Positions 7,722-31,416 of a stretch of 43,540 nt of DNA are shown here, one piece after another. The stretch is from the IMG/VR virus record IMGVR_UViG_3300009433_000003. One strand, given 5' to 3'. The translations under genes and the position numbers were made by a program. This stretch comes from a virus. Below the pieces are notes generated by a model. That model saw only the letters and a list, made by a program, of their open reading frames with translations, made no database searches and was not told where the DNA came from. Position 1 is the first letter of the stretch. Every line of letters starts with the position of its first letter.

Positions 7722-8714
7722 ATGGCTACAGTAGGAAGCACATATCTGCAACTGGCAGACTATTACCGTCGACAAGACGGCAAGGGTCAGATTGCGGAAG
7801 TAGTGGAAATATTAGCGGAGATCAACCCTATCCTTGAGGATGGAATGGCTCTTGAATGTAACAATGGCGCAGCGCATCTGACGACAATACGCACCGGGTT
7901 GCCACAAGGCACTTGGCGTAAATTGTACGAAGGCGTACAGCCTAGTAAGTCAACGACCAAACAGGTTAGCGACACCACCGGCTGGCTCGAGGCATACTCT
8001 GAGCTTGACGAAAAACTCTATGCACTAGCGGCAGGCAACGGCAACGCACTACGATTGTCAGAAGCTGAGGCTTTCATTGAGGGCATGTCAAACCAGATGG
8101 CTTCAGCAATGTTCTACTCGAACACTGCGAACACGCCTGAGCAGTTCATGGGTCTGTCACCACGCTTCAACGCACTAACCGGCGCTGAGAACAGTGGTCA
8201 AATCGTGGACGGCGGCGGCGCTGGCTCTGATAACACTTCAATCTGGTTCGTGGTCTGGTCTCCTAAGACCTGTCACCTATTGTATCCGAAAGGCACAATG
8301 GCTGGCGTATCACGCAAAGACCTTGGCGAACAAACCAAGGAAAATTCTGACGGCTCTATGTACCAAGTTATGCGCGAGCATTTCAAATGGGACATCGGTA
8401 TGTCGGTCCGTGATTGGCGTTATATCAGCCGTATTGCAAACATTGACGTATCACTTGCAGCGGCCGGCTCTGTCGACCTGTCTGACTTGATGATTAGCGC
8501 TTATTACAAGCTACGTCAACGCAGAGTACGCGGCGGAACAGCGGTTATCTATTGCAACACTGAGATTAAAACAGCGTTGCATAAGAAAGCTCGCTCTGAC
8601 TCCACCAACACCCTGACCCTTCAGAACTTTGAAGGCAAGGAAATCGTTTCATTCTTGGGTGTACCTATCCGTGAATGCGATGCCATCGTAAACACAGAAG
8701 CCCTAGTCGCTTAA
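7722..8714 (+). CDS. Major capsid protein (HK97-fold, BPP-1/Bbp17-like)
   Basis: 330 aa. Strong SD (GGAGGA). Position after the scaffold gene. N-terminal pattern MAT..YLQLADYYRRQDGKG is typical of this capsid family. Confidence 0.85.
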   Translation: MATVGSTYLQLADYYRRQDGKGQIAEVVEILAEINPILEDGMALECNNGAAHLTTIRTGLPQGTWRKLYEGVQPSKSTTKQVSDTTGWLEAYSELDEKLYALAAGNGNALRLSEAEAFIEGMSNQMASAMFYSNTANTPEQFMGLSPRFNALTGAENSGQIVDGGGAGSDNTSIWFVVWSPKTCHLLYPKGTMAGVSRKDLGEQTKENSDGSMYQVMREHFKWDIGMSVRDWRYISRIANIDVSLAAAGSVDLSDLMISAYYKLRQRRVRGGTAVIYCNTEIKTALHKKARSDSTNTLTLQNFEGKEIVSFLGVPIRECDAIVNTEALVA

Positions 8715-9376: not shown

Positions 9377-10012
9377 ATGAGTACACAAGTCGAAGTCTGC
9401 AATCTTGCGCTGAGTCATATAGGTGACGCGAACACAATCTCTGATATTACGGAGAACAGCACTCAGGCTGGCCAATGTAATAGACATTGGACAAACGCTT
9501 TAAATACAGCGCTGAGGCTGCGAGACTGGTCCTTTGCACGGGTATCTGCCAACTTGGCTTTGAAAGGGACTGCGCCACAAGGCTGGACCTATCAATACGC
9601 GACGCCAGTCGATATGCTTATTCCGCGTATGCTGATAGCGAACGACGTGCCGCTGCCATTTCTTACTGAGAACAATGACGGCATAAGAGCGGTCAACGAC
9701 CCTTATCCTTACGAGCTAGGCCTGAACACAGCTGATCAATCTATTATCTTACTAACGAACCTGTCAGAAGCTATTCTGAGGTACACCGCCAAGAATGATA
9801 TCGTTTCTCTTTGGCCGGTCGATTTTCAAACAGCGATGAGCTATATATTAGCCGAGCGTATTGCTATGCCGCTGACACGAAACCCAGAAATCAAAGACGC
9901 TATGGGGCAGGCAGCACGGCTCGCCGTTTCTACCGCCAGCGTCAACAACCTCAACTCGGAGGAGCCTGCTCGACCAGCGGACTCAGGTGGTATACAAGCG
10001 AGGGGTCAATAA
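9377..10012 (+). CDS. Tail tubular protein A / adaptor (T7 gp11-type)
   Basis: 211 aa. The N-terminus MSTQVEVCNLALSHIGD...RDWSFAR is the characteristic gp11-family pattern. TAATG overlap with the next gene. Confidence 0.7.
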   Translation: MSTQVEVCNLALSHIGDANTISDITENSTQAGQCNRHWTNALNTALRLRDWSFARVSANLALKGTAPQGWTYQYATPVDMLIPRMLIANDVPLPFLTENNDGIRAVNDPYPYELGLNTADQSIILLTNLSEAILRYTAKNDIVSLWPVDFQTAMSYILAERIAMPLTRNPEIKDAMGQAARLAVSTASVNNLNSEEPARPADSGGIQARGQ

Positions 10013-12513
10013 TGCCTACCGCGAATCAGTCCTCGTTTGCCGCCGGTGAGCTCACTCCCTCCTTGCACAGTAGGCCTGACCTCGAGCGCTACCTTACGGG
10101 GCTCCGAACGTGTTATAACGCAATAATTCATCCTCACGGCGGCCTATCGAACCGAGCGGGGCTGGAGTTTATCGTTGAGGTCAAGAACAGTGAGCACGCT
10201 TGTCGATTAATCCCTTTCGCATTCAATGACAGCGACACCTATACGCTTGTTCTAGGAGATCAATATATCTGGTTCTTGCGTAATGGCGGAATCATAATTA
10301 ACACCGCGAACACAATAACCGCTGTCACCAAAGCGAACCCGGCAGTCGTTACTAGTACGGGGCACTCACTGCAAAACGGGGATACAATTTACATAAGCGA
10401 CGTTGCTGGCATGACCGAGCTCAATGGTCCGCGCTACACCGTGGCCAATGTAGCGGCCAACACGTTTGAGCTGGACGGTATTGATAGCACGGCTTATACC
10501 ACCTACACCTCCGGGGGCGAGGCCAGCAGCCTTTATGAGATAGCAACGCCTTACGCACACACAGAATTATTTGAAATCGGGTACACCCAGTCAGCCGACG
10601 TGCTGACCTTGGTTCATAGAGGCAACGCCCCGAGAACACTGGGACGGACCGGGCACACGTCATGGACCCTGTCAACAATCACCTTTGCGCCAGAAACACA
10701 GCCACCGACCGGCTTGAGCGGCACCGGCAGCGCGTACAGCTACGTCGTGACTTCGTTCTATGATGACACCGGCGAGGAGTCGGTTGCTTCCGCCGCGGCC
10801 AACATGGACGAAACCAGCACGCTCTCGTTCACCGCTCCAGCCAGTGGCCCAGTGCCTGATCGTTATTATGTCTATAAGATGAAGCCGGCGAACGGGCTCT
10901 ATGGGTTTATTGGTGAGGCGGTCGGGACCACCTTCACAGATTCGACGATTATCCCAGACCTTGAGGACACGCCTCCGCAAGCACGAAACCCGTTTGCAGC
11001 GACGGACGACTACCCTTCAACCGTGGCTTACTATCAACAGCGCCTCGCCTTTGGGGCAACAAACAATGACCCGGACAAGGTCTGGCTGACCCAAATAGGA
11101 CGCTTCAACAATATGAACGTCTCTGTCCCGCAAAAAGCAGATGACGCACTGACGCTCAGAATTTCCTCGAATGAAGTGAACCGGGTCCAAAACTTTGCGC
11201 CACTGGATAGCTTGATTGTGCTTACTTCAGGCGCCGAGCACTTGGTTACGAGCGGGGACTCGGCTTTCTCAGTGGATAACATTAAGATTAAACCACAGGA
11301 TTACCGGGGCTCGACCGCGCTGAAGCCGATTATTTTGGGCGGCGATATTCTGTTCGTGCAAGGACAAGGCAACGTGGTGCGCTCTATGAGCTACGCGCTA
11401 GAGTCTGACTCATACCGCGCTCAGGACCTCTCAATCCTCTCTAGGCATTTATTTGTGAATAACTCAATGGTTGATTGGTCATACGCTAATCAGCCGAATA
11501 ATGTCCTCTGGTGCGTCCGTGATGACGGCTCCATGCTGGGCTTCACCTTTGTCCGCGAGCATGAGGTGTTTGCATGGCATCGACACAAAACCGACGGGCT
11601 GTTCGAGTCTGTCGCAACCGTGGGTGAGAACAAAAAGGACGCTGTTTATGTCGCTGTAAAACGAACAATTGGCGGCGTCACAAAGCGCTACATTGAGCGA
11701 ATGCACGAGCGCGGGTTCGAGGGGACCCATGGCGTGACTGATATTGAGGATGCTTTTTTTGTTGACTCAGGCCTATCGCATGACGTGCCTTACATTATAA
11801 CGGGCGCCACACAAGCGGACCCGGTTGTCATTAGTGTCACAAGTCACCCCTATAGTAATGGTGACACAGTTCATATTAGTGATGTCGACTTTACACTGGA
11901 CGCCGACGGCGCCGCTGATACTGGCATGGCCGAGCTCAATGGCGGCCGCTACCTTGTTTCAAATAGCACGGTCAACGCCTTTGAAATTACCGACCTCGAT
12001 GGCAACGATATCGACGGGACGGCTTTCGCAGCGTACACCTCGGGCGGCATCGTAAGGGAGGCGGTTAATACTGTTGCAGGCCTCGACCACCTCGAAGGTG
12101 AGACCGTGGCAATACTGGCTGATGGTGACGTTCATCCTCAGCGAGTCGTCGCAAGCGGCAGCGTCACACTGGATTATCGTGCTAGTCGCATCCATGTCGG
12201 CTTACCGTACAACGCCGATGTCGAAACACTCGAGACCCCTGAAGGCTACGGCCGCAAGAAAACAGTCTCAAGGATTCAGCTCCGCTTCCTAAACACACGA
12301 GGCATAAAAGCTGGCCCCTCTCTTACTAGGCTCAATGAGCTGGTACAGAGAACGGACGAAGACTATGCAGCACCGACCCGGTTGTTTACTGGAGAGGCTG
12401 AGATTGTCATCGAGCCGACATGGCAGAACCGGGGCCGTTTGAGTTTTAGGCAGAGCGACCCGCTCCCTTTCACGTTGCTGGCCATCCTTCCTGATGTCGA
12501 AGCCGGAGGCTAG
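10012..12513 (+). CDS. Tail tubular protein B / nozzle (T7 gp12-type) with two inserted beta-barrel domains
   Basis: 833 aa from ATG 10012. The track ORF start at 9811 is in the same frame but overlaps the adaptor gene. N-terminus: MPTANQSSFAAGELTPSLHSRPDLERY. Size and position fit. Confidence 0.75.
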   Translation: MPTANQSSFAAGELTPSLHSRPDLERYLTGLRTCYNAIIHPHGGLSNRAGLEFIVEVKNSEHACRLIPFAFNDSDTYTLVLGDQYIWFLRNGGIIINTANTITAVTKANPAVVTSTGHSLQNGDTIYISDVAGMTELNGPRYTVANVAANTFELDGIDSTAYTTYTSGGEASSLYEIATPYAHTELFEIGYTQSADVLTLVHRGNAPRTLGRTGHTSWTLSTITFAPETQPPTGLSGTGSAYSYVVTSFYDDTGEESVASAAANMDETSTLSFTAPASGPVPDRYYVYKMKPANGLYGFIGEAVGTTFTDSTIIPDLEDTPPQARNPFAATDDYPSTVAYYQQRLAFGATNNDPDKVWLTQIGRFNNMNVSVPQKADDALTLRISSNEVNRVQNFAPLDSLIVLTSGAEHLVTSGDSAFSVDNIKIKPQDYRGSTALKPIILGGDILFVQGQGNVVRSMSYALESDSYRAQDLSILSRHLFVNNSMVDWSYANQPNNVLWCVRDDGSMLGFTFVREHEVFAWHRHKTDGLFESVATVGENKKDAVYVAVKRTIGGVTKRYIERMHERGFEGTHGVTDIEDAFFVDSGLSHDVPYIITGATQADPVVISVTSHPYSNGDTVHISDVDFTLDADGAADTGMAELNGGRYLVSNSTVNAFEITDLDGNDIDGTAFAAYTSGGIVREAVNTVAGLDHLEGETVAILADGDVHPQRVVASGSVTLDYRASRIHVGLPYNADVETLETPEGYGRKKTVSRIQLRFLNTRGIKAGPSLTRLNELVQRTDEDYAAPTRLFTGEAEIVIEPTWQNRGRLSFRQSDPLPFTLLAILPDVEAGG

Positions 12514-12961
12514 TGTAAGGCCTGCGACACTCGAAGACGTTGACGTCCTGTTCGATAATATCCGAGCAGGAGACCTCAACGAAATGGAGTACGCCAGCCG
12601 ACAGACCCCTTACAATTACCTCCTTAAAACCTATGAAATGACGCGCAGCCCACTCGCCGGGGTCATTGATGGGAAACTGGTCGCGCTCATGGGTATTGTC
12701 CCGGTCGGGCTACTGACTGGTGAAGGCTGTCCATGGATGCTGGGCACCGAGGAGCTCAAGAAGCACGGGAAGATATTCGTCGCTTTCAGCAAACCCACCA
12801 TGATAAGTGCGGCCAAGCCTTACACGACTCTGCGAAACTATGTGGATGTTAGGAACAAACAATCGATTAGATGGCTGAAATGGCTGGGCTTTACGATTAA
12901 AAGCCCAGTTATCTACGGACCCTATAGTAAACCTTTTTACCCGTTTGAAATGAGGAAGTAA
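12494..12961 (+). CDS. Internal virion protein A-like (T7 gp13 / DUF2833-like)
   Basis: 155 aa, positioned after the nozzle gene. C-terminal N-x-x-SIRWLKWLGF pattern. Confidence 0.5.
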   Translation: MSKPEASVRPATLEDVDVLFDNIRAGDLNEMEYASRQTPYNYLLKTYEMTRSPLAGVIDGKLVALMGIVPVGLLTGEGCPWMLGTEELKKHGKIFVAFSKPTMISAAKPYTTLRNYVDVRNKQSIRWLKWLGFTIKSPVIYGPYSKPFYPFEMRK

Positions 12962-12964
12962 ATT

Positions 12965-13492
12965 ATGTGCGGAATGGCAGAGGCAAGTCTTGCAATGATG
13001 GTTTTTGGAGGGATAAGCAGCTTCTCTCAGTCACGGCAGCAAGCAAAAGCTCAGAAACAGCAGGCAGCATTCGACTCCAGAGTCGCTGAGAACAACGCAA
13101 CCAACGCCGAAAACGAGGCGCTTCAGGTAGAACAGACGGCTCTAGCAGACGGCAAAATCAGAACGACGAAGGGCGAGCTCAGCAAGGGTCAGCTCCGGGC
13201 ACAGTTAGCAGCCAACGGCGTGGTCGTTGATGAAGATAACGCGCTCGGTTCATTGCTCGACGAGGAGGCCAGCACGGCGCTCGACGTCTTAACCATCAAG
13301 TACAACGCCGACAACCAAGCTGGAGGACTCCGGGCCGAGGCTAATAATTATCGCATAGGCGCGGCAAACACCCGGTCGAAAGGTGAGTTCGACGCAAGCC
13401 AAACCAAGTCCGCTGGCTGGGGCACTTTGCTCGGCAACGCTGGCAAAACCGCTGGACAATATGCCACCTTCAAGAAACTCGGAGCGATATAA
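12965..13492 (+). CDS. Internal virion protein B-like (T7 gp14-type)
   Basis: 175 aa. Starts MCGMAEASLAMMVFGGISSFSQSRQQAKAQ, similar to the T7 gp14 N-terminus MCWAAAIPIAISGAQAISGQNAQAK (from memory). Confidence 0.6.
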   Translation: MCGMAEASLAMMVFGGISSFSQSRQQAKAQKQQAAFDSRVAENNATNAENEALQVEQTALADGKIRTTKGELSKGQLRAQLAANGVVVDEDNALGSLLDEEASTALDVLTIKYNADNQAGGLRAEANNYRIGAANTRSKGEFDASQTKSAGWGTLLGNAGKTAGQYATFKKLGAI

Positions 13493-15397
13493 ATGGCGAA
13501 CCTCAGAGTCACTAGAGAACCAACTGTCGCAATCGATAGTCCCGTAAAGAATCGCTCATCACTAAGAGCGCCGACACTCCAGTTCAAGGACAGCGGCAGC
13601 CAGATATTCCAAGGCGGCCAACAGCTGGCAGCGCGTGCAGAGCAAATGCAGAAAGAGGAGAACGTCCTCACGGCCAAGGATATCGATAACCAGTACAGCG
13701 CTGAAATGCGCGAGATAATGGAAGCTGATGACGGCTACTATAACCAGAAGGGCAAGAGCGCTGTCGACCAGTTTGAGGCGGCACAAGAAAGACTGGACGC
13801 GCTTCAGGCAAAATATGCAGGGATGAGCGGGAATGACCACGTCTCATCATTGCTGGCCGGCACGTTGAACGCGAGAAAACAGAACGAGCTCAACAAGGTC
13901 TATACCCACAAAGCACAGCAACGCAATATCTGGGCTGACAACACTGATCAGTCCTCCATTGAGAACGCCACAAACGAAGCGGCCAACGCTTACAACGACC
14001 CTATCTATGTCGCCCAGAACGTCGCCAAGGGAATGGAGAGCGTGGACCGGGTCCTTAGTCGAGCAGGCATTCCACTTGTGGACGAGAACGGCAAAGAGAC
14101 CGAAGGGGCCAAGTCGGCGAGAACAAAATTTACCAGCGGATTGTATGAGCGCGTTATCGAACGAGAAGCCATCAACGACCCCATGGGCGCACAAAAGAAA
14201 TACGAAGCCATACTGAGCCAAGAGAAGGCAACGCCTGAAGGCCGCTTGCTGATAAGCCCAGACGCAAAGATGAGGATTGAGACATCCTTGAAGACGAAAG
14301 TCACCTCAGCCAAGGGCCGGGGCTTGCTGGTACAAATAAAGCAAGACAACCCGGGGCTCACTGATGAGCAGATGCTCCAGAAAATCTATGACCACGGTGA
14401 CACCACCGGCGATATCGATACCGCTGACGACGCGGCTCAACGCTTCCGTCAACGCATATCAGACAAGAAAGGCTTTAAGGCTGAGAACGAAAAGAGCGTC
14501 ATCAAGTCGGCGCATAAAAAGATTAACAGCACTGAATGGCAAGGGGCGGATCTGACCTTGAAAGACATATTATCTGAAGAGGAGTACAACCTACTTTCTC
14601 AGAGCCAGTACGGCATCGAGAACGCCGAGAAGCGTATCAAGCGAATGCGTGAAGGTATCAGCGTCGACACCACGCAAGGCAACATGTACAAGAAATGGGA
14701 TGGCGCCACTGCCGAGCAGCTCGTGGTCATGGTTGAGAAGGGCGAGCTCGACAACGACATCAATGGCGGGAGTATTTCAGACGGTGACGCACAGCGATAC
14801 TGGACCCTATACGGCAACGCAAAAGAACCGGGCAAGGTCACAGCCGAGAAGGCCGCTGCGAAACATATCTCGCCGAACGTGGGTGAGAAGCTAGCCGCTT
14901 ACCTGAAGAGAAATGAAATCAGCACCACCAAGAACCCAGATTCTGGGGAATTGACCAGCTACCTCGTCAAACACATACAAGACGTCAAGAACGCCTCGGG
15001 TGCTGCCGTGCTCGACGGCGCCACTGAGGACGAAATATTTGCGAAGGCAACCGCGCCCGTGAACATCCCGGGAGAATGGTTCGGCATAGATACTGTCCCG
15101 GCCTATAAGGCGTGGGCGAAAGAGGAAGCGAGCAAAGCTAAGGAACCGCATCAAGTCGACTTGGGCATCTATGAAGCGAGCGAGATTGCCATTGCAAAGG
15201 CAGCTTATGACAGTCAGCGCGAATCAATCACGGCCGACTTAAAGGCTGGCGGCAGACCATTCGAGAACGAAGACGAGGGCGGCTCATTTAATCTCAGCAC
15301 GAAGGGCGGCACAAAAACAAAAGAGCGCCACTACGACCGGGTGATACTAGATATGCTTATTCGGCAAATGAAACAACTAGACGAGGCTGAAAAATAA
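13493..15397 (+). CDS. Internal virion (core) protein C-like (gp15 position)
   Basis: 634 aa, helical and charged. Sits between the gp14-like and the giant gp16-position gene. Confidence 0.5.
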   Translation: MANLRVTREPTVAIDSPVKNRSSLRAPTLQFKDSGSQIFQGGQQLAARAEQMQKEENVLTAKDIDNQYSAEMREIMEADDGYYNQKGKSAVDQFEAAQERLDALQAKYAGMSGNDHVSSLLAGTLNARKQNELNKVYTHKAQQRNIWADNTDQSSIENATNEAANAYNDPIYVAQNVAKGMESVDRVLSRAGIPLVDENGKETEGAKSARTKFTSGLYERVIEREAINDPMGAQKKYEAILSQEKATPEGRLLISPDAKMRIETSLKTKVTSAKGRGLLVQIKQDNPGLTDEQMLQKIYDHGDTTGDIDTADDAAQRFRQRISDKKGFKAENEKSVIKSAHKKINSTEWQGADLTLKDILSEEEYNLLSQSQYGIENAEKRIKRMREGISVDTTQGNMYKKWDGATAEQLVVMVEKGELDNDINGGSISDGDAQRYWTLYGNAKEPGKVTAEKAAAKHISPNVGEKLAAYLKRNEISTTKNPDSGELTSYLVKHIQDVKNASGAAVLDGATEDEIFAKATAPVNIPGEWFGIDTVPAYKAWAKEEASKAKEPHQVDLGIYEASEIAIAKAAYDSQRESITADLKAGGRPFENEDEGGSFNLSTKGGTKTKERHYDRVILDMLIRQMKQLDEAEK

Positions 15398-15398
15398 C

Positions 15399-18300
15399 AT
15401 GCTAAATTTTGACGAAGCATTCGAGGAAGAGTATCGCGCTTACACCCAAGGCCCTAGCAATACGCCAGAGCCTCAGCAAGACCTCAAGCCACTCAGAAAA
15501 GCAACGCAAGAAGACGCCAATAAAATCGCTGCCGACATGTTCGGTCAGAAAGGAAAGGACGACGCTGCCTTTAACCAGATGGCGGAGACCTCTCTCAGCA
15601 TGGACCCCGAGCAAGAGGCCAGCGCGTACAACATATCTAACGAGATAGGCGTGCCGGTAGAGACCGTTCGGGGAGACCTTGGTATCTACCAGCAGCTGGT
15701 CGCAAAACAAAAAGCGCTTACGGACTTCAGCGCCATAAAAGAAAACACCGGCCTGTCTAATTTGTACACCCAAGACGGGCAGCTCGCGGCCATGAGTGTT
15801 GATGACGCTTATGAACAAGATCAACTCTGGGGCTGGGTGACTAGCGTCACTGAGACAGTCTTCGACGCAACCGCTAACGAAATGCGACTCAAGAATGAAG
15901 TCGGTGACGTAATGGATGACACCGGCGGATTATTGCTTCGGAAATACATGTTCGACAACCTGAGTGAGGAAGACAACACAGAGCTCGCCACATTGCTCGA
16001 AGCCACGGACAGGGCAAACAAAATATTCGCAGACCGCTCAGACATCGATGAGTCAATCGCTCTCAATGGGGCCGAGATATGGGGGCAGTTTACGTCTTCG
16101 CTTCCTGTCATGCTGGGTGGCGCAGCGGTAGGCGCTGGCACAGGCTACGCCATGGGCGCGGCTTCAGGTCCCGGCGGCGCAATCACAGCCGGCACAGGCG
16201 CTTTGGTCGGCTCATCACTCGCGTCAGGCGCTCATGCAGCTGTCATGGAGGCTGGTCATGCCGTCCACGAGTTCGCTGGCATAAAGGACCTTGATGGCAA
16301 TTTCATGGACCAAGACGTCGCACTCGGCGCTGGCATGATGGTCGGGCTTATTAATGGCACGATTGAAGCGGCAGGCTTCGGCGTGCTGGCTAAGTTCTCC
16401 GGGGCCAAGAAGGTGCTCGGGTACTTCAGCAGGGGCGCTATAAGAAAAGAATTAATCCAGAACGCAACACTCCGCAAAGCACTGAAGAACGCCGGGAAGG
16501 CTTGGGCGTTAGGTATTGCCGAACAAACCGTCGAGGAAGTATTGCAAGAGAGCGTTAATATGCTGACGGGTGAAATGGCAAAAATGTACGCGAGCGGCGA
16601 CTTCAAGACCATGACTAAAGATGAAGCCTACGAACGACTTGGGGCCATCATGTACAAGACCGCTACCGGCTCAGTCATGCTGTCAGGCGGCACAGCGACG
16701 CCCCAGTTCTTGGTCGACGTGCACGCTGCCAATAAAGCAGAATCAACAAAGAGCTATTTCCAAGGGCTGGCCGAGAAGGTCACCACAACCAAACTACACG
16801 AACGAGCGCCGAAGAAACTGGAGACACTGGTCAACGCGGCAGCTGACAAAGGTCCCAAGGATACCGTCTATGTTGACGCCTTGAAATTGGTCGAGACACT
16901 GGCCAACAAGGACGAGAGTGGGCAGACGCTGAACCAAGACAAAGCCATTGCCGCCATTGAGGAAGAGTTCCCTAGCCTTAAAGGAAAGGTCGGGCCAGCG
17001 CTTGCCTCGAACACGCCGCTACGCATTCCAATGGGTGAGTACGCTGCCAACATTGCGCCAACCGAATTGCACAAAGCGCTGATCGACGACATCAAGTTCG
17101 ACGAGACCGGGATGACGTTCTCTGAAGCAACCGACTGGCGAGCGAATGGGGAAAAAGAATTTACGAAGGAAATGGAGAAGGCCAACAAGAAGGCAGTGGG
17201 CAAGCGAGAAAAGGCGGCCCCAGCCGAGAAAGTCTTCGACGAGGTTGTTGCTAAGTTAATTGATAGCGGCCAGACCAAGGAAGTCGCGGGAACAAATGCC
17301 GCCACTTGGAAAGCATTCTTCAACACGATGGCACACCTGACAGGCGGCGACGCTTATGAGTTATACAGTGCTTTCGATATCGATGTCGATAACGCGGCGG
17401 GGGGAGGTGATTTTCAGTCTTTGCTTTCTTCAGCGCTAGAACGACGGCCAGCAGATGAGACTATCGTGGAAGGGTCTGGGAACTCCAGCCCAACTGCCTC
17501 GAAGTCTGAAGGTTCAGCCCAAGACGCCTTGCCGGGCATGAAGTCCACAATACCAGCGCCGCCTTCAACCCATTCGCCGACAGATTCATCGAACGTCTCT
17601 ATCTTTTCGCCACCGTCTTCGGTTGCGACGAGTCTGCCGAGCACTCTTCCCTCTAGCAATGAAGGTGGTTCGGTCAGTTTAATCTCAGGGGAATTTTTCA
17701 TAAACCCGAGTATACAAAAAAGTAGCGAAAATAACAAGGCTGTATGGCAACTTACTGACGAACTTATCACGAACATGGGGTTAGCTGAGCAGGGCATGAA
17801 GGGCTTCGAGAATGACCTCAAGGCGTTCGCTTCTCTGATAGACGGCGTTGAGCTTTATGGTGTCCGGGTTAAGGACGAGGCGGGGCTCCTTACTAAGAAG
17901 CTATCGCGGGGCAGCACATGGGAAACCATTAACGATTATTTAGGCGGTCGCTTGGTCATATCAAACGAGGCCGCTATGGCGGAAGCCATGCGTCGCCTTG
18001 AAGAGTCGGGCGTCGAGATACTCGAGAAAGACAACTTCCTTCATAAAAGCAAAAAAGGATATCGAGCGGTCCATTACACAATCAGGTTGCCGAATGGCTT
18101 GGCGGCTGAGCTTCAGCTCGTCCCGACAGAGATATCCAATATTCAGGACGAAATGCACAAAATCCATGACAAATGGAAAGCGGTCAGCGAGACACTGTTG
18201 ACCGATGAACAAAAAGCAGACCGCGAAACCGACCGGGACTTCATGCAGGGTGAGTTCGACCGGGAATACCAGAACTATCAACAAAAGCAGGTCGTCCTTT

Positions 18301-21300
18301 CGCAGTCAAACAACAAGGCAATCTCGGACGCGGACCTTGCGACAGGGGAGGGCTTCTTTATCACAGAGGGCCTCGATGTCGTCAGCGTCGCAGTCAACAG
18401 CTTGCGAACCGTGAAGGACGCGCCTGAGCGAGTGGACCGTGCAGAGAAAGGAATGCTGGGCGCTCTTAATGGCGGTCAAGGCAGGAAACCGATATCAGTC
18501 ATGCAAGAAGACGACGGCACCTATACCGTGCTGTCAGGACGCTCGACGGCCTCGGCACTGAAGCGACTAGGCGTTAAGAACATCCCGGTCCGAATACAAA
18601 CTATGGAAGAGGTTGAGCTGGAAGAGGCCGCCGGCAAGATAGGCAAAATGCAAATGATAGAGGCTGGCATGTCAGGCGAAGCGTTCGACGCGAGCCACAT
18701 CGATGAGTATATCGTGGGCAAATGGGTGGCCACCGGGAAGGCGCACAAGAACCCAGATGGCTCATATATCTTGACAGAAACAGGCCTTAAAATGGTGGAA
18801 AAGGAGCTCAATGAGCCGACTATTTCCAGTATTGACAAACTAAAAGCTGGCGCCGAGCTGTTCGAGCCCGGGATTAATCTCGAGTTTGCGCCCGACCCAC
18901 GCAACGAAACACTGACGGCGAAGTTCAAAGCGCTGTCACCCGAGGAAAGACTCGAGGCCACGAAAGCCATAGCTGACGCGGTTATCCCTGAGATTATGAA
19001 AGAAATGGGGATTGATAATTACAACATTGAAACGACCGAGGGCGGCTTCGAGGACGACGTCAATCCTAGCCTGATACTTCGAGCTCCCGAGTTAGCGTTT
19101 GACGAATTGATAGAACTTGCTAATGTAGCGGGCTTCGTCGGGTCTCAACAAGCAACAATTGTTTATGATGAGTCTGACCATTCTGGAACACAGACCGGCT
19201 TTATTAAGATAAAACCACTGGTCGAAATGGATGAGAATGAACGTGCTGAATTGTACCAGCACCTCCATGAAGTTATTCCACAGGTCGAAGGCTACACCTA
19301 CCGAGACGGGGCCATTGTTATTGGCAACTTTTCCGGGTGGAGCGACAACCCGATTGACGACGACACGATGTACCTTGTCATTGCTGAGGCATTGGAAGCA
19401 TACGACACAGAACATCATTTTGACTTGCAAGAGCCGGTGACTTTCCGCTCTGAGTATTTAGAAACTAATCTTGAGGATACACGATATGGCTACGGTGAAC
19501 AGAGTGAAAGCGGACGGGAAACCAGTGTTCGGGGGCAAGGGCGTCGTAATGCTAAAGGGATTAAAGCCATCAAGCGAGAAGCCAGTCAACTCCTCGAAAG
19601 CAGGCTTAACGGTGGAAAAACCAACCAAGAAGTAAATAACGAGAAATGGCAGAAGGGTACCACTGCCCTTCTCAAGAGCAGAGACACCAAGCTACAAGTA
19701 ACAACAGCAGCGCCCGACGTCTTCAGCGTCATCGACAGCGGCGTCAAATCACTTGCCCTGACCAACGGGGTCCTGAAAGAAATACAACGAAAACACCCAG
19801 ACGTCCCGGCCGAGGTCATTGCTAACTTGCGCGAGCTTGTCACCGACCCTGAGTTCGTCTATCGCAGAACCATCCCGGGCAAAGAGGACGAGGTCAATAT
19901 CGTTATCAAGGGCCGCACAGCAAAAGGCGAGACCATTGTCGTCGGCGTGCATCCAGCGACAGGTATGATCAAAACAGTAACGCCACGCCATGACCAAAAA
20001 GGTCCGGGCTCTGGCCGCGCTCATCTAGCGAAGGAAATTGGCAATGCCCTGAAGGGCGAAAAGAAAATGTACATTGAAAATAAGGCGGCCTTGAGCGAAC
20101 TCGAGGCCGCCCAGTCTCGTCCAATCGCAAGTGTCGCGGGGGGACCAAAAAGACTGAGCGCTAAAGTAGTGACAAAATCAAAACTTGTCAATAACTTAGG
20201 CAGGGAGCTCGAGCAGTCTGGCTTCAATAATTGGTTCGGGGACTCAAAAATCGTTGATGATAACGGTGAGCCGCTGGTGGCTTATCATAGCACCAAGCGC
20301 GATATCACTGAGTTCAAGCCTGCTTATGATGACGGCATGATGTTCTTTACGACGAACGCCAAGTTCGCCGGGGACTGGATTAGGGGAAGCGGGGGGCTCA
20401 GAGATATGTCTGATGTCGGCAAGGCTGAAGCGCTGGCAATGCGGTCGCTCGAACAAGAGCTATACCCTGTCCACATGAAGGACGCTGAAGAGTACGACTG
20501 GAAGACCCCAGAAGGCGTGGCAGAGTTCGACAAGGACCGAGACAACTTCAAGAAAGCTGTCCGGGAAAAGACTGGTTTTGATAGCGCCTCAGAGTTTGAA
20601 GCTGTTGGCGAATCGCAAATCATGCCTGTCTACCTAAAGGTCGAGAAGCTGTTTGACCCAAGAAAAGACTTCAAGGTCGTCGAAGAGTTATTGCTTTCGT
20701 TCCCTGAAGAGAACGGCATGGGTAAGCTCGTCGAGCAGGGCGCTCACAAGCAAGGAAGCTGGATAATATACGAACGGCCAGAGGTTACGGAGCTACTCCA
20801 AGGCCTTGGGTATGACGGCATCCTTCTAGCAGAGAACATTGGAGGACCACACGAAACAATCGCGGTCTGGGATAATACGCTAATCAAGTCAGCCAGCGGC
20901 AACAACGGCAACTTTGACGGCAGCGGCAATATATTAAACCAGACGCTCAACGACGACATGGGCGGCGACACCCGGGGGAATATTACGCTCCCTGATGACA
21001 TCCGGGACGGCACCACAATTATCCGAATGTTTGAGGGACAAGACCTGTCCACCTTCCAGCACGAGTCGGCTCATTTCTTTTTAGAAGTTATGCGCTCACT
21101 GGCAATGGACCCGATGGCCACGCCTGAAATGATTAAGCAATGGACCGCTGTCAGCATGATGCTTGACATGGACCCCGAGGGCACGACCACGGTCGAACAG
21201 CATGAGACATTCGCCAGAACCTTCGAGGCTTATTTGTTCGAGGGCAAGGCGCCCAACATGGAGCTGAGGAAAGTATTCAACAGCTTTTTATTCTGGCTGA

Positions 21301-24300
21301 AACGTGTCTATGAGGACGTTAAGAATTTGAACGTCGTCATCAATGATGATGTCCGCGCAGTCATGGACCGGGTCCTTGCGACCGAGAAAGAGATTGAAGC
21401 GGCCAAGGACAATATGCACTATCGCGCATTGTTTGACGCGGCAGCGGCAGCCGGCATGGATGAGGACCAATATAACAGTTACACCGAGGCGCTCGAGGAA
21501 GCCAATGAGGGCGCAATCCGCCGTATGGAAATGGAAATTCTCCGGGATGTTTCACGGGAAACCAAGCTCTGGTGGCGAGAAGAAAAGAAGAAAGTCGCTG
21601 TCGAAGCTGAAGACGAAATCAATCAACAGAAAGTGCACCAAGTTATTCACTACCTTATGCACGCCAAGAACCTCGTCACAGGCGAGAAAGTCGGCAAAGT
21701 TAAGATGAGCCGCGAGCTTGCTGAGGAAGTGCTCGAGGGCACCGGCTACACCACCAAGGACCTACCGGGCGGCGGCGCGACTGCGCTAGTTCGTAAGGGT
21801 GAAGGCGTCAGGCCTGAGCTGGTGGCCGAGCTCTATGGCTACAGTTCAGCGCAAGAAATGTTGCTCGCTATTATCAAGGCACCGAAACGAAAGGAAGAGA
21901 TCAAAGCGAGAACAAAGCAAATGATGATTGAGCGCCATGGAGACCTATTGAACGACGGCTTCATTGAAGAGAAAGCCATGGAAATTATTCACAGTGATGG
22001 TCAGGCCAAGGTGCTCGAGCTCGAGCTGATGGCATTGTCACGCCGGTCGAAGACGAAGTTCACACCAGCGGCCATTGCTAAAAACATCGCCAGAGAGATT
22101 CTAAGCGGCATGACGGGCCGTGATATCAAGCCCAACACTTATGCCATTGCAGAGCGTAAAGCAGCAAGGGCGGCAGAAAAGGCCTTGATTAAGTCCAACT
22201 ATGACGAGGCAGCTAGACAGAAGCGAATACAGCTAATCAATCACGAGCTTTATCGTGCGGCACTGGAAGCAAAAGAGGACGTCGACAAGGCGCGGAAATA
22301 CTTCAAGAGCTTCGAGAAGGGCAGCAAACGCAAACGTCTGGACCGGGATTATTTGACGCAAATCGACAGGATGCTGGAACGGTTCGAGCTGGGCAAGATA
22401 TCAGGCAAACAAAAGAAACGACGCGAGTCACTGGCGGAATGGATTAAGAGCGAAGAGGAGAAAGGCAATATTGTCGACCTTGATGAGCGCCTGCTTGATG
22501 AGACCTATCGCAACAACATTGAAGACATGCAGCTCGGTGAGATTATGGCATTGAAGGACGCCGTCACTAACATCGAAAAACTCGCCGTGCTCAAGAACAA
22601 ATTGCAGTCACTGAACGACCAGCGTGAGCTCGACGAGATTGTTGAGGATGTCGCCGGGGAGCTGGAGGCAGGGGCTAAGGGCACCGTCAAAGACAACCCA
22701 GAAATGCGACTCCCTCAAGACGAAGCGGGTCGCGCAATTACAGGCTTTTTAATTGGTCACAGAAAACTGTCGAGCATTGTCTTGCAGATGGTCGGCGGCA
22801 AACGGAACTCGACACTCTGGAAGTTATTAGTCAAGACCGCGAACAAGCGGGAAGAGCACGAGAACAACCAGAAGGAAGCGGCAACCATCACTTTAACCAA
22901 GCTGTTCCAAGGCCTGAGCGTCAGTAAAAAGTTATACATGAAGATATGGCGCCCAGAGATTGGTGAGTCACTGACTAAACAAGGCTTGCTGATGATTGCG
23001 CTGAACCAAGGCAATCAAGGCAACAAGACGAAACTGGTAGAAGGGCAGACCGTGAAAGGCTGGTCTCAAGATAAAATCCAGAAGCTACTCGACAACCACA
23101 TGACCAAGGAAGACTGGGAAATGGTTCAAGGGACGCTCGACTTCATTAATAGCTACTGGGAAGAGTCAGCCGCGAAACAGTACCGCCTCACCGGGATACG
23201 CCCGGAGAAGGTTGAGGCCATGCCTATCGTAACGCCATACGGCACCTTTGCTGGCGGATACTTCCCGCTGAAGTATGAGGACCGGGTGAGCGAGAGGGCG
23301 CTGGTCCACACGCAACAAGACATCGCCAAGCAGATGACGCAAGGCATGGTCGGGAAAGCAACCACGAAGCGCGGCCACTTGAAGGGGCGAGTCGATAATG
23401 TCCAGATGCAAATGCGCCTAGACTTTGGCGTCATCTTCGAGCACGTCGGTGAGGTCATACACGATCAGACCTATCACGAATGGCTCGTCGATATTAATAA
23501 ATTAATCAGTCATTCTGGCTTCCGTACCGCTGTCGTCAAGAACCACGGCGTCCAAGCCTACGGCACTATCAAGAACACAATCTCTGATATTGCAGCCGGG
23601 GACGTGCCAGCAGCGAACCATTTTGAGCAAGGCCTTAACTGGATACGAGCAGGCACCTCAATCGGGTACATGGGCTGGAGCGTCTGGACCTCTATGTTGC
23701 AGCCTATGGGCTTGACTCAGTCCATTGTCAGGATTGGACCCAAGTGGGTGGCGAAGGGGATAAGTCGCTGGCTCACCGGCCATGAAGGCATGGAGAGCAC
23801 AACCGAATGGATATTCTCTCAGTCGGACTTTATGCGTCAACGTACCAAGACCATGAACCGGGAAATTAATGAGATTAGAAACAAGCTCCAGAAGAGCGGC
23901 GTAATGACGGACATTGAGGATAGTTATTTCTGGCTTATCGGGAAGACCCAGCTCATCGCTGACATCCCCACATGGCTCGGCGAATACGAGAAGCAAAAAG
24001 AATTACATAACATGTCGGACGAAGACGCGGCGGCTCTAGCAGATCAAGCCGTCATCGACTCGCAAGGGTCAGGCGGACTGAAGGACATGGCGCAACTCCA
24101 GAGGGGTGGACCGCTCCAGAAATTATGGACCGCGTTCTATAGTTATTTCAATGTAACGTATAACCTGACAGCAGAGTCCTACGCGAGAACAGACTTCAAG
24201 AGCGTGCCTTCAGTCGGGCGCCTTGCTGTCGACTTCATGCTGTTGCATACGCTGCCCTCAGCCATGGCCACCATCATGTATCAGATAGTAAAAGGCGACT

Positions 24301-24650
24301 GCGAAGACCCAGAATGTCTGGCCAAGCAACTCGTCGGCGACCATATCGGGTATACGCTGGGCATGGTCCTTGGTCTCCGGGAGCTGGGCGGTATTGCTTC
24401 GGGCTTCGGTTACACAGGCCCGTCGGGTATCAACCTGTTCGGGGAGGTGGCTAAGGCTGTCAAGCAGTGGAAACAAGGCGAGGTCGATGAGTCTTGGTTG
24501 AAGAGCACTAATAAGGTCGCTGGCATCTTATTGCATTACCCGGCTTCACAGATTGAGCGGACTATCAGAGGCATGTATCACATGGCTAATGGCAACACTA
24601 CCAACCCGATGGCACCACTTGTTGGACCTGCTTACAAAGACACTAGATAG
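15399..24650 (+). CDS. Giant internal virion / ejection protein (gp16 position), polyvalent multi-enzyme protein, 3083 aa
   Basis: Single uninterrupted ORF of 9252 nt. Contains Gly-rich hydrophobic segments, an RSH synthetase-like domain, a ParB-like domain, an ART-like domain, an HExxH domain, a long helical region and a hydrophobic C-terminal third. Confidence 0.85.
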   Translation: MLNFDEAFEEEYRAYTQGPSNTPEPQQDLKPLRKATQEDANKIAADMFGQKGKDDAAFNQMAETSLSMDPEQEASAYNISNEIGVPVETVRGDLGIYQQLVAKQKALTDFSAIKENTGLSNLYTQDGQLAAMSVDDAYEQDQLWGWVTSVTETVFDATANEMRLKNEVGDVMDDTGGLLLRKYMFDNLSEEDNTELATLLEATDRANKIFADRSDIDESIALNGAEIWGQFTSSLPVMLGGAAVGAGTGYAMGAASGPGGAITAGTGALVGSSLASGAHAAVMEAGHAVHEFAGIKDLDGNFMDQDVALGAGMMVGLINGTIEAAGFGVLAKFSGAKKVLGYFSRGAIRKELIQNATLRKALKNAGKAWALGIAEQTVEEVLQESVNMLTGEMAKMYASGDFKTMTKDEAYERLGAIMYKTATGSVMLSGGTATPQFLVDVHAANKAESTKSYFQGLAEKVTTTKLHERAPKKLETLVNAAADKGPKDTVYVDALKLVETLANKDESGQTLNQDKAIAAIEEEFPSLKGKVGPALASNTPLRIPMGEYAANIAPTELHKALIDDIKFDETGMTFSEATDWRANGEKEFTKEMEKANKKAVGKREKAAPAEKVFDEVVAKLIDSGQTKEVAGTNAATWKAFFNTMAHLTGGDAYELYSAFDIDVDNAAGGGDFQSLLSSALERRPADETIVEGSGNSSPTASKSEGSAQDALPGMKSTIPAPPSTHSPTDSSNVSIFSPPSSVATSLPSTLPSSNEGGSVSLISGEFFINPSIQKSSENNKAVWQLTDELITNMGLAEQGMKGFENDLKAFASLIDGVELYGVRVKDEAGLLTKKLSRGSTWETINDYLGGRLVISNEAAMAEAMRRLEESGVEILEKDNFLHKSKKGYRAVHYTIRLPNGLAAELQLVPTEISNIQDEMHKIHDKWKAVSETLLTDEQKADRETDRDFMQGEFDREYQNYQQKQVVLSQSNNKAISDADLATGEGFFITEGLDVVSVAVNSLRTVKDAPERVDRAEKGMLGALNGGQGRKPISVMQEDDGTYTVLSGRSTASALKRLGVKNIPVRIQTMEEVELEEAAGKIGKMQMIEAGMSGEAFDASHIDEYIVGKWVATGKAHKNPDGSYILTETGLKMVEKELNEPTISSIDKLKAGAELFEPGINLEFAPDPRNETLTAKFKALSPEERLEATKAIADAVIPEIMKEMGIDNYNIETTEGGFEDDVNPSLILRAPELAFDELIELANVAGFVGSQQATIVYDESDHSGTQTGFIKIKPLVEMDENERAELYQHLHEVIPQVEGYTYRDGAIVIGNFSGWSDNPIDDDTMYLVIAEALEAYDTEHHFDLQEPVTFRSEYLETNLEDTRYGYGEQSESGRETSVRGQGRRNAKGIKAIKREASQLLESRLNGGKTNQEVNNEKWQKGTTALLKSRDTKLQVTTAAPDVFSVIDSGVKSLALTNGVLKEIQRKHPDVPAEVIANLRELVTDPEFVYRRTIPGKEDEVNIVIKGRTAKGETIVVGVHPATGMIKTVTPRHDQKGPGSGRAHLAKEIGNALKGEKKMYIENKAALSELEAAQSRPIASVAGGPKRLSAKVVTKSKLVNNLGRELEQSGFNNWFGDSKIVDDNGEPLVAYHSTKRDITEFKPAYDDGMMFFTTNAKFAGDWIRGSGGLRDMSDVGKAEALAMRSLEQELYPVHMKDAEEYDWKTPEGVAEFDKDRDNFKKAVREKTGFDSASEFEAVGESQIMPVYLKVEKLFDPRKDFKVVEELLLSFPEENGMGKLVEQGAHKQGSWIIYERPEVTELLQGLGYDGILLAENIGGPHETIAVWDNTLIKSASGNNGNFDGSGNILNQTLNDDMGGDTRGNITLPDDIRDGTTIIRMFEGQDLSTFQHESAHFFLEVMRSLAMDPMATPEMIKQWTAVSMMLDMDPEGTTTVEQHETFARTFEAYLFEGKAPNMELRKVFNSFLFWLKRVYEDVKNLNVVINDDVRAVMDRVLATEKEIEAAKDNMHYRALFDAAAAAGMDEDQYNSYTEALEEANEGAIRRMEMEILRDVSRETKLWWREEKKKVAVEAEDEINQQKVHQVIHYLMHAKNLVTGEKVGKVKMSRELAEEVLEGTGYTTKDLPGGGATALVRKGEGVRPELVAELYGYSSAQEMLLAIIKAPKRKEEIKARTKQMMIERHGDLLNDGFIEEKAMEIIHSDGQAKVLELELMALSRRSKTKFTPAAIAKNIAREILSGMTGRDIKPNTYAIAERKAARAAEKALIKSNYDEAARQKRIQLINHELYRAALEAKEDVDKARKYFKSFEKGSKRKRLDRDYLTQIDRMLERFELGKISGKQKKRRESLAEWIKSEEEKGNIVDLDERLLDETYRNNIEDMQLGEIMALKDAVTNIEKLAVLKNKLQSLNDQRELDEIVEDVAGELEAGAKGTVKDNPEMRLPQDEAGRAITGFLIGHRKLSSIVLQMVGGKRNSTLWKLLVKTANKREEHENNQKEAATITLTKLFQGLSVSKKLYMKIWRPEIGESLTKQGLLMIALNQGNQGNKTKLVEGQTVKGWSQDKIQKLLDNHMTKEDWEMVQGTLDFINSYWEESAAKQYRLTGIRPEKVEAMPIVTPYGTFAGGYFPLKYEDRVSERALVHTQQDIAKQMTQGMVGKATTKRGHLKGRVDNVQMQMRLDFGVIFEHVGEVIHDQTYHEWLVDINKLISHSGFRTAVVKNHGVQAYGTIKNTISDIAAGDVPAANHFEQGLNWIRAGTSIGYMGWSVWTSMLQPMGLTQSIVRIGPKWVAKGISRWLTGHEGMESTTEWIFSQSDFMRQRTKTMNREINEIRNKLQKSGVMTDIEDSYFWLIGKTQLIADIPTWLGEYEKQKELHNMSDEDAAALADQAVIDSQGSGGLKDMAQLQRGGPLQKLWTAFYSYFNVTYNLTAESYARTDFKSVPSVGRLAVDFMLLHTLPSAMATIMYQIVKGDCEDPECLAKQLVGDHIGYTLGMVLGLRELGGIASGFGYTGPSGINLFGEVAKAVKQWKQGEVDESWLKSTNKVAGILLHYPASQIERTIRGMYHMANGNTTNPMAPLVGPAYKDTR
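17832..18182 (+). other. Domain: RelA/SpoT-type nucleotide pyrophosphokinase (small alarmone synthetase / toxSAS-like), aa 812-928
   Basis: Aligned by eye to the B. subtilis RelQ motifs. VRVKDEAGLLTKKLSRG matches RVKSPESIIEKIKRKG. DYLGGRLVI matches DIAGVRVVC. KKGYRAVHYTI matches DSGYRSYHLIV. AELQLVPT...HKIHDKWK matches VEIQIRT...EHKLRYK. Confidence 0.8.
18411..18623 (+). other. Domain: ParB/Srx-like nuclease/NTPase fold, aa ~1005-1075
   Basis: RKPISVMQEDDGTYTVLSGRSTASALKRLGVKNIPV matches the ParB N-terminal pattern (PI.V....G.y.vl.G..R..A...lG...ipv). Confidence 0.6.
19752..19991 (+). other. Domain (tentative): PBECR-like (phage Barnase-EndoU-ColicinE5/D-RelE) nuclease, aa ~1452-1531
   Basis: LKEIQRKHPDVPAEVIANLRELVTDPEFVY...VNIVIKGRTAKGETIVVGVHPATGMIKTVTP resembles the K-H..d....i..l.e.i.dPd.v...vvv....i.T layout of these domains. 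Weak. Confidence 0.3.
20220..20894 (+). other. Domain: ADP-ribosyltransferase-like (ART-PolyVal type), aa ~1608-1832
   Basis: FNNWFGDSKIVDDNGEPLVAYHSTKRDITEF, then MMFFTTNAKFAGDW, then PVYLKVEKLFDP, then GYDGILLAENIGGPHETIAVWDNTLIKSA. This is the typical H / S-T / E layout of the phage polyvalent-protein ART family. Confidence 0.6.
21006..21278 (+). other. Domain: zincin-like metallopeptidase (HExxH), aa ~1870-1960
   Basis: FQHESAHFFLEV (HESAH at nt 21060-21074) followed by EQHETFARTFEAYLFEG as a possible third ligand region. Confidence 0.55.
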
Positions 24651-24678: not shown

Positions 24679-24711
24679 ATAATGCAACTTTTAAAATGAG
24701 GTTGCATTATG
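24679..24711 (+). promoter_or_regulatory. Perfect 10-bp hairpin covering the tail-fibre translation start
   Basis: ATAATGCAAC (24679-24688) and GTTGCATTAT (24701-24710) are exact reverse complements. The loop holds the SD-like TGAGG, and the 3-prime arm includes the A and T of ATG 24709. Confidence 0.6.
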
Positions 24712-31385: not shown

Positions 31386-31416
31386 GGGAAATATAGCACG
31401 GCTCGTTGAGCCGTGC
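31386..31416 (-). promoter_or_regulatory. Palindrome + TATA-like box element, copy A (upstream of the SAH gene)
   Basis: On the minus strand it reads GCACGGCTCAACGAGCCGTGC-TATATT-TCCCACT. It lies 26 nt upstream of ATG 31360. Confidence 0.5.

Follow-up and report, generated by a model that had tools for sequence, protein, structure and literature searches.

The question raised by this locus is whether a phage builds an alarmone synthetase into one of the proteins that would be ejected from its virion into the host cell. The locus is part of a viral DNA of 43,540 nucleotides (IMG/VR virus record IMGVR_UViG_3300009433_000003), the whole of which is called the window hereafter and provides the numbering of all coordinates, unless another locus is named. 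It consists of a giant open reading frame (ORF) of 3083 amino acids (aa), uninterrupted on the plus strand (15399..24650), and the same 3083-aa gene is also called on independent metagenome contigs. The encoded polyvalent internal virion protein occupies the position of T7 gp16, i.e., of IVP-D (internal virion protein D), and Pfam distinguishes in it the domains LPD22, RelA_SpoT and ART-PolyVal. An earlier note, made by reading the translation, had assigned aa 812-928 (17832..18182) to an alarmone synthetase domain of the RelA/SpoT homologue (RSH) type. The answer that we consider reasonably probable is that this stretch belongs to a probably active RSH pyrophosphokinase, carried as cargo in a polyvalent IVP-D of a temperate podophage, ejected with it, and complemented by a hydrolase encoded elsewhere in the genome that would serve as an antidote.

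With respect to the identity of the domain, the plus-strand translation of the window 17832-18182 in the frame of the giant ORF (...GVRVKDEAGLLTKKL...NDYLGGRLVI...KGYRAVHYTI...AAELQLVPTEI...EMHKIHDKWKA) contains, in aa 812-928, the hallmark blocks RVK...KKL, DYLGGRLVI, GYRAVHYTI, ELQLVPT and H..H.KWK, and is identical to what had first been read. The Pfam family RelA_SpoT (PF04607) scores 24.9 bits on the full 3083-aa protein, slightly under its gathering cut-off of 27, and the isolated segment aa 762-978 scores 30.5 bits (E 4.7e-7), above that cut-off. Compared by phmmer to the PDB sequences, the isolated domain matched the RelP of S. aureus (E 7.6e-5). A family profile (A1), made of 57 RSH-subfamily domains taken from an exhaustive HMMER search, matched among the PDB entries the mycobacterial RelA (8fr8, 1.5e-11), the B. 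subtilis RelP (6fgk, 3.1e-11), the mycobacterial Rel (5xnx, 1.4e-10), RelQ (4e-10) and Tas1 (3e-5); FaRel2 appeared at E 0.24, and CapRel was not matched in the same PDB search. The three-dimensional model predicted by AlphaFold2 on the basis of the family alignment is a confident one (pLDDT 95.8, pTM 0.90). Foldseek retrieved with this model 66 PDB matches at E<=1e-3, and the 50 best that were listed are all RSH synthetases, each at a probability of 1.00, including RelP, RelQ, CapRel, Tas1 and Rel, with a TM-score (TMq) of up to 0.71. In a library of viral structures, the best matches to the model consisted of large proteins from uncultured phages, several of which are named RelA/SpoT, DdrB-like or ART-PolyVal-like. 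On the evidence of these profiles and of the predicted model, the flagged stretch is confirmed as a genuine RSH synthetase fold, the agreement being far above chance. Its limits had been drawn too narrowly: the interval of aa 812-928 holds as the RSH catalytic core, whereas the structural domain, as delimited by the AlphaFold2 model, extends over aa 779-964 (17733..18290, plus strand) and comprises one additional helix at the N-terminus and another at the C-terminus. The 3083-aa protein contains a single RSH domain.

A weak similarity of the same region (17676..18368, plus strand) to the C-terminus of the XopAD/skwp type III effectors was also detected with NCBIfam (E 0.0025), consistent with the report that some XopAD proteins have Rel-like domains (PMC12691689).

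The relatives of the domain became visible by exhaustive searching. Neither tblastn of the RSH domain nor megablast of the giant gene gave a match among 50,697 GenBank phage records. The word-indexed protein search returned no protein with the RSH domain as a query and only two proteins with the family profile; the exhaustive HMMER search was therefore required. Among 1.84 billion cluster representatives, it identified 370 relatives at E<=1e-3, 107 of them at E<=1e-10, these relatives being themselves representatives of clusters at 50% identity. Identity to the query is 26-42%, and almost every one of them is embedded within a protein of 500 to 4500 aa.

Whether such a domain could still catalyze the transfer of pyrophosphate depends on a well-defined set of residues, which has been established in the S. 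aureus RelP (SaRelP). In this enzyme, R78 and R112 make stacking contacts with the adenine of ATP, K80, K88, R91 and S84 touch the phosphates, D107 and E174 are ligands of Mg, H190 touches the ribose and Y151 is the tyrosine of the G-loop (Steinchen et al. 2018, PMC5794853). The phmmer and profile alignments transfer R78, K80, K88, R91, D107, R112, Y151, E174 and H190 of SaRelP to R823, K825, K834, R837, D846, R851, Y888, E904 and H920, respectively, of the giant protein, in which H892, Q906 and P909 complete the list of key residues. The ATP-binding set (R823, K825, K834, R837, R851 and H920), the Mg ligands D846 and E904, and the acceptor-stacking Y888 are thus all kept, and the sole named residue that is lost is the Ser of the first motif (RxKxxxSxxxK), equivalent to S84 of SaRelP. 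The G-loop reads G887-Y888-R889-A890-V891-H892, with an Ala in place of the Ser of GYxSxH, as is the case for 124 of the 153 members of the subfamily. Among these 153 domains, R823, K825, K834, D846, E904 and Q906 show little or no variation, and 104 have all nine checked residues intact.

In this respect, the most conspicuous departure from the canonical enzymes concerns the EIQIRT motif, which is incomplete. The family-profile alignment to the PDB structures pairs it with ELQLVP, as first proposed; the Glu and the Gln are retained and the RT dipeptide is replaced by V-P. One may read this replacement as a sign that the RSH domain is a catalytically dead relic, kept as a structural element or as a spacer of the ejection protein, and the full-length Pfam score below the gathering cut-off, together with two departures of the query from the family consensus (His for Tyr at position 923, Thr for Gln at position 894), could be invoked in the same sense. 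However, the Pro which takes the place of the Thr occurs in 136 of the 153 subfamily members, so that the change is a trait of the subfamily and not a private loss, and an explanation by decay was rejected in favor of a subfamily hallmark, designated here as ExQxxP. In the model, which is confident throughout, P909 closes the strand and a helix begins immediately afterwards. Since ExQxxP is conserved across the subfamily and, the Ser apart, the residues named for the binding of ATP, Mg and the acceptor are all intact, a dead relic seems very improbable. The conservation of the motif instead suggests a selection on a working site, and the catalytic site is, as far as can be judged from the alignments, under selection and probably functional.

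Two variations on the domain were noted in the subfamily, most members of which reside inside phage proteins. Tandem RSH copies occur in two homologues, P0001 (aa 915-1112 and 1168-1358) and P0003 (aa 1281-1466 and 1487-1672), and the Arg equivalent to R851 is lost in both copies of P0001. In addition, a stand-alone member of 303 aa (P0158; L040:4150-5061) is encoded some 4 kb away from a type I CRISPR-Cas locus (cas1/2/4, cas3), on a contig devoid of recognised phage genes, and it may represent a cellular, defence-island version.

The carrier of the domain was placed by the earlier note at the position of gp16, and the gene order bears this out, the neighbouring genes being arranged as a T7-like structural module. 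The giant ORF follows two internal virion proteins (12494..12961 and 12965..13492, plus strand) and a lytic-domain protein of 634 aa (13493..15397, plus strand), all three covered by the PHROG families 308, 418 and 1044, and it precedes the tail fibre gene (24709..26775). A comparison of the 634-aa protein to the PDB sequences gave nothing useful. The C-terminal 1242 residues of the giant protein (aa 1842-3083, 20922..24647, plus strand) form the IVP-D-like scaffold, recognized by PHROG 9880 (1104.8 bits) and by homology to Bbp10 and to gp39 of Caulobacter phage Jess A. By tblastn, they share 33% identity with Bbp10 of phage BPP-1 over 99% of their length, and 33-38% identity at 97-99% coverage with the group formed by Bbp10, Jess A gp39 and their relatives. 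The order of the genes also matches that of bbp12-bbp11-bbp10-bbp9 in BPP-1. Bbp10 is listed as a homologue of T7 IVP-D (gp16) in Table 2 of Hardies et al. 2016 (PMC4819975), and the same authors describe IVP-D proteins fused to intracellular enzymes, namely gp50 of N4 and gp60 of H66.

According to its domain composition, the carrier is also a polyvalent protein sensu Iyer et al. 2017, since a single phage ORF of 3083 aa unites LPD22, RelA_SpoT and ART-PolyVal. LPD22 (PF18834), a marker of polyvalent proteins, covers aa 60-137 (15576..15809, plus strand; E 8.2e-7, 29.6 bits for a cut-off of 28.6). The ADP-ribosyltransferase (ART) domain ART-PolyVal (PF18760) covers aa 1620-1839 (20256..20915, plus strand; E 6.9e-14, 53.2 bits for a cut-off of 31.2) and is predicted to be a second injected effector of the same polypeptide. 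This ART region can be aligned with Jess A gp39, and the alignment with Bbp10 of BPP-1 starts only downstream of it.

The comparison with related phages sets the RSH domain apart from the rest of the carrier. Residues 464-666 of the giant protein align with residues 380-578 of Jess A gp39, and residues 1605-3080 with residues 597-2037, and the intervening insertion of about 940 residues (aa ~667-1604) has no counterpart in Jess A gp39. The insertion contains a low-complexity linker rich in Ser, Pro and Thr (~aa 690-765, 17466..17693, plus strand) as read from the translation, then the RSH domain, and then a weak ParB-like segment. No RSH domain occurs in Jess A, in BPP-1 or in the gp16 of the Octadecabacter phage OANV1. 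The OANV1 gp16 (L031:2943-11903) is a Bbp10-type protein of about 3000 aa with other inserts in its N-terminal half; the cargo region is therefore variable between phages and, the insertion being missing from the related phages, the RSH domain behaves as an exchangeable cargo in a conserved ejection scaffold. The subfamily is otherwise encoded at 28 IMG/VR loci, including ORFs of 3001, 3025, 3819, 3888 and 4684 aa. At one of these, L007, tail tube B and a lytic protein of 1033 aa are followed by a 3819-aa ORF with an RSH domain, i.e., the same synteny in a divergent podophage.

These observations bear on the idea that the RSH domain acts in the cell that produces the virions, or in the decision between lysis and lysogeny, e.g., by a late rise of alarmone or by a mimicry of starvation that promotes lysogeny, and not as an injected weapon. 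The phage is a temperate one, with an integrase, an HTH_3 repressor-like gene and a YqaJ/SSB module, and the giant gene encodes a late structural protein that, judging from the copy numbers of T7, would accumulate to hundreds of copies per cell, which suits such a role. A fusion to an ejection protein would, on the other hand, be costly unless delivery matters, and members of the subfamily are found repeatedly in giant virion or polyvalent proteins in the company of other effectors, a pattern which has been interpreted as co-injection (Iyer et al. 2017, PMC5512222). Accordingly, we accord little probability to a function in the producing cell and retain the RSH domain as a probable injected cargo.

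Three other segments of the carrier deserve mention. Just past the ART domain, an HExxH motif (HESAH, aa 1888-1892, 21060..21074, plus strand) lies within the sequence DLSTFQHESAHFFLE, and this DLSTF-HExxH block, with its conserved motif and flanks, is kept in Jess A gp39, in Bbp10, in the OANV1 gp16 and in two unrelated giant ORFs, those of L005 and L007. The block may correspond to the zincin-like peptidase by which polyvalent proteins are postulated to process themselves; the region had no Pfam match, so that we infer this function from the motif. Just past the RSH domain, a weak ParB-N-like segment (aa 1030-1076, 18486..18626, plus strand) was detected with the Pfam family ParB_N below its cut-off (E 0.018-0.043) and with PHROG 3951 (E 8.6e-4). 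The RSH-family homologues P0001 and P0003 possess clear ddrB-ParB domains, and LPD38 also occurs in homologues, so the pairing of RSH with ParB may be a recurrent one. Searches of aa 140-700, 965-1620 and 1840-2040 with Pfam and NCBIfam gave sub-threshold matches only, and a sub-threshold match to MuF_C was seen downstream of the RSH domain at aa 1460-1520 (E 0.003-0.05).

The second component of the proposed system is a hydrolase. Small alarmone hydrolases (SAH) serve as antidotes in some systems of the toxSAS/Tas1 type. A scan of the remaining ORFs of the window yielded a stand-alone protein of 156 aa with an HD domain (30890..31360, minus strand; Pfam HD, E 3.3e-7), which displays the motifs of the RSH hydrolases and can be described as an Aph1-like SAH. 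Its best sequence match in the PDB is Aph1 (7smg, '(p)ppApp hydrolase', 8.1e-12), and the next SAH scores 1.2e-6. The gene belongs to a minus-strand operon together with the integrase, the single-stranded DNA-binding protein (SSB) and YqaJ, a position which would be compatible with an early or a lysogenic expression. The signature residues of Aph1 are D24, R96, D116, R119, K133 and Y134 (Ahmad 2023, PMC10083569), and the D-K-A motif of Aph1 excludes guanine. The HD protein keeps this motif as D21-K22-A23 (equivalent to D24-K25-A26), as well as the Arg and K135-Y136, and the ribose Asn is replaced by His. Its closest relatives from isolated phages are HD genes that follow a MuF-Apk2 toxin gene and a small ORF in Streptococcus prophages, such Apk2-IapK-Aph1 modules having been described by Ahmad 2023 (PMC10083569) and Paulet 2025 (PMC12226406). 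No Tis1/IapK-like gene was recognised in the window, the 68-aa ORF beside the HD gene being without similarity to the small ORF of Javan146 that is presumed to be IapK, and a search of Jess A, BPP-1 and OANV1 revealed no Aph-like HD gene. Taken by its sequence, the HD protein is a candidate antidote to, or immunity enzyme against, the RSH domain of the virion.

Two minor observations concern the surroundings of such hydrolase genes. A 9-bp GC-rich hairpin (31396..31416, minus strand) lies directly upstream of the HD gene and was rejected as informative, terminator-like sites being no commoner in this region than in shuffled sequence. At the locus that holds the closest viral relative of the HD protein, L042 (IMG/VR UViG_3300043579_000184), a 359-aa ORF (L042:16471-17547) carries an RSH domain that matches A1 (3.7e-16) with mixed motifs, DILRGT, which resembles the syn2 of the Apk enzymes, and EMLILP.

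Put together, carrier, cargo and hydrolase suggest a sequence of events during infection. The giant protein would be packaged in the core of the capsid and ejected via the tail ahead of the DNA or with it. Its cargo end would reach the cytoplasm, possibly following cleavage by the conserved HExxH module, and the RSH domain would move pyrophosphate from ATP onto an adenosine or guanosine nucleotide at its 3'-OH. The resulting burst of (p)ppApp and/or (p)ppGpp would halt the metabolism of the host before phage gene expression, and the Aph1-like hydrolase (minus strand, as above) would then clear the product, either to reset the cell for phage development or to provide immunity to the lysogen. 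A more specific form of this scheme assumes a pulse in which a toxin is injected and its antidote expressed afterwards. The pre-made RSH enzyme, entering with the ejectosome, would flood the cell with (p)ppApp or (p)ppGpp within seconds and so freeze metabolism and the expression of defences. The hydrolase, translated from the earliest phage transcripts or, in lysogens, available beforehand, would clear the nucleotide, so that only the cells committed to this phage recover and lysogens are immune. This specific form we regard as doubtful.

Several points weigh against the proposal that the RSH domain is an active injected cargo with its own antidote. Packaging, ejection and enzymatic activity are all inferred, for the giant protein as for its close relatives. 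The C-terminal scaffold has no match among the PDB sequences, and its status as IVP-D is therefore based on published remote homology and on synteny; no virion proteomics was found in the literature for Bbp10-type proteins. The deletion of the stretch equivalent to D116/R119 removes two of the six signature positions of Aph1 from the HD protein. The HD gene is located 6 kb beyond the end of the giant gene and on the opposite strand, i.e., it is not adjacent, and no Aph-like gene occurs within 10 kb of the RSH domain at any of the 28 IMG/VR loci. Finally, the GGR and AxH motifs of the RSH domain and its closeness to Rel, RelP and RelQ point to a guanosine-type RSH, in conflict with the Aph1-like partner hydrolase, which points to (p)ppApp.

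The arrangement of the HD gene, in a different operon from the giant gene, and its absence from the surroundings of the RSH domain in other viral loci leave room for a hydrolase that is unrelated to the RSH domain of the virion and works in counter-defence or physiology, e.g., by degrading host alarmones or by undoing the effect of a host toxSAS. Most of the bacterial Aph1 homologues are not encoded beside toxins (Ahmad et al. 2023, PMC10083569), and related HD genes exist in 407 GenBank phage records. Among the best 80 Aph1-like genes of viral contigs, however, ~36 (roughly 45%) have an RSH synthetase domain no more than 10 kb away: at least 31 of them are just downstream of an Apk2-like gene, and 4-5 more have an A1-matching RSH domain within that distance. 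In addition, L042, whose HD protein is 41% identical to the present one, possesses a family-related RSH domain 6 kb off. As Aph1-like genes are often near an RSH gene and the 28 RSH loci lack a nearby Aph-like gene, the link between the two enzymes is suggestive and not obligatory. A separate function of the hydrolase, which concerns solely the antidote part of the proposed model, is thus possible without being favored, and the HD protein is retained as the candidate antidote.

With respect to the product of the enzyme, the Apk enzymes are distinguished by the motifs RYT (syn2), GxN (syn3) and YH (syn4), and the guanosine-type RSH by AVR, SxH and IR; the RSH domain of the giant protein has GGR, AxH and LV-P. 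In the case of Apk2, swaps of these motifs left the specificity unchanged, and promiscuous synthetases exist, so that with such conflicting clues the sequence alone cannot decide the product. Membership in the clade of Apk and Tas1 was rejected, the Apk motifs being absent and Tas1 being matched at 3e-5 compared to about 1e-11 for Rel, RelP and RelQ. A different target is also conceivable: CapRel, FaRel2 and PhRel2 are pyrophosphokinases of the tRNA 3'-CCA end, and an injected enzyme of this type would block translation without producing any free alarmone. The best superpositions of the model in terms of TM-score are indeed those with the CapRel of Salmonella (TMq 0.70-0.71), and the G-loop tyrosine is retained. 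This structural resemblance is not matched by the sequence, for which the similarity to FaRel2 is negligible and CapRel escapes the family profile, and it is a (p)ppApp-specific enzyme that comes closest to the partner hydrolase. The acidic isoelectric point (pI) of the RSH domain, 5.1 for a family median of 6.4, also speaks, as weak evidence, against such a target, provided that tRNA binding favors a basic surface. An injected tRNA-modifying toxin accordingly appears improbable. With respect to the nature of the product itself, (p)ppApp is tentatively put forward as the best guess, (p)ppGpp or both nucleotides together are rather doubtful, and it seems unlikely that tRNA 3'-CCA is the acceptor, or that the domain is inactive or does something else.

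The idea of an alarmone synthetase in an injected phage protein is already known, and the earlier note, which knew of no characterised virion-packaged RSH enzyme, gave too strong an impression of novelty. Iyer et al. 2017 (PMC5512222) reported polyvalent phage proteins with RelA/SpoT domains, predicted their injection and proposed an alarmone-like response upon entry, and biochemical characterisations are available for the MuF-fused Apk2 enzymes of prophages, which synthesize (p)ppApp, and for Aph1 (PMC10083569, PMC12226406). No paper was found in the literature that connects an internal virion protein with an RSH domain. The particulars of the present case consist of an IVP-D carrier, a large ExQxxP subfamily and a non-adjacent Aph1-like gene.

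Compared to the polyvalent proteins of Iyer 2017 (PMC5512222), the giant protein has the same multidomain organization (RelA/SpoT, ART-PolyVal, ParB-like and LPD22), and the same co-injection with the DNA and processing by a zincin-like peptidase are predicted. The examples given there are from prophages of Spirochaetes and epsilon-Proteobacteria and from MuF fusions, whereas here a BPP-1-like podophage combines an IVP-D scaffold with an RSH domain of the ExQxxP subfamily and has a separate gene for an Aph1-like hydrolase at another place in its genome. The Apk2-IapK/Tis1-Aph1 modules likewise associate an RSH toxin fused to a head-internal protein with a phage-encoded HD hydrolase of the Aph1 type. 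They differ in that the present RSH domain has no pairwise BLASTP similarity to the Apk2 of Javan146 (Apk2tox) and displays GGR, AxH and LV-P instead of RYT, GxN and YH; moreover, unlike Apk1 and Apk2, it is carried by IVP-D without any N-terminal MuF or PAAR delivery domain, and the hydrolase gene is not adjacent.

With respect to the housekeeping enzymes, the synthetase domains of RelP, RelQ and Rel/RelA are the closest by profile (1.5e-11 to 4e-10) and have the same fold and the same residues for ATP, for Mg and in the G-loop. Identity to them in the Foldseek alignments amounts to about 15-20%, xP replaces RT, and the present domain is embedded in a virion protein without attached hydrolase or regulatory domains. 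The toxSAS proteins (FaRel, FaRel2, PhRel, CapRel) and the Tas1/Apk1 effector of the type VI secretion system offer the precedent of weapons that arrest growth by means of an RSH fold (TMq 0.63-0.71), in contrast to which the present domain lies within a structural protein of 3083 aa among virion genes, has neither an adjacent antitoxin nor a PAAR domain, and is weakly similar in sequence (Tas1 3e-5, FaRel2 0.24). As to the carrier, gp50 of N4, the virion RNA polymerase, and the methylase-like gp60 of the Pseudomonas phage H66 also combine a gp16-homologous scaffold with a domain that acts inside the cell (Hardies 2016, PMC4819975), the cargo here being an RSH pyrophosphokinase and an ART and not a polymerase or a methylase.

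Whether the MuF-Apk2 toxins are carried in the virion and injected is explicitly left as an open question in the literature of 2023-2025 (PMC10083569, PMC12226406). The carrier described here is homologous to Bbp10, a listed homologue of T7 gp16, and gp16 is one of the internal virion proteins in the transient tail assembled by T7-like phages during infection. It would thus allow a cleaner test than the MuF fusions do. The genome supplies, in addition, a candidate antidote alongside the virion RSH domain. A result obtained for one ExQxxP member would annotate many others, since most of them are inside giant phage proteins. If the pulse of toxin and antidote proved true, it would constitute the first virion-delivered alarmone synthetase and answer the question raised by the MuF-Apk2 toxins.

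The phage itself is a temperate BPP-1-like (Rauchvirus-type) podophage known from metagenomes only. Its temperate character is deduced from the integrase (33603..34652, minus strand), the recombination genes SSB and YqaJ (35279..36618, minus strand) and the HTH_3 repressor-like gene (38668..38988, minus strand). It was encountered on 22 metagenome contigs, all of them of ~43.5 kb or less, so the window probably represents a nearly whole genome. No tRNA genes were found in the window. Upstream of the internal virion proteins, the structural genes comprise those of the portal (5020..6693), the major capsid protein (7722..8714) and tail tube B (9811..12513).

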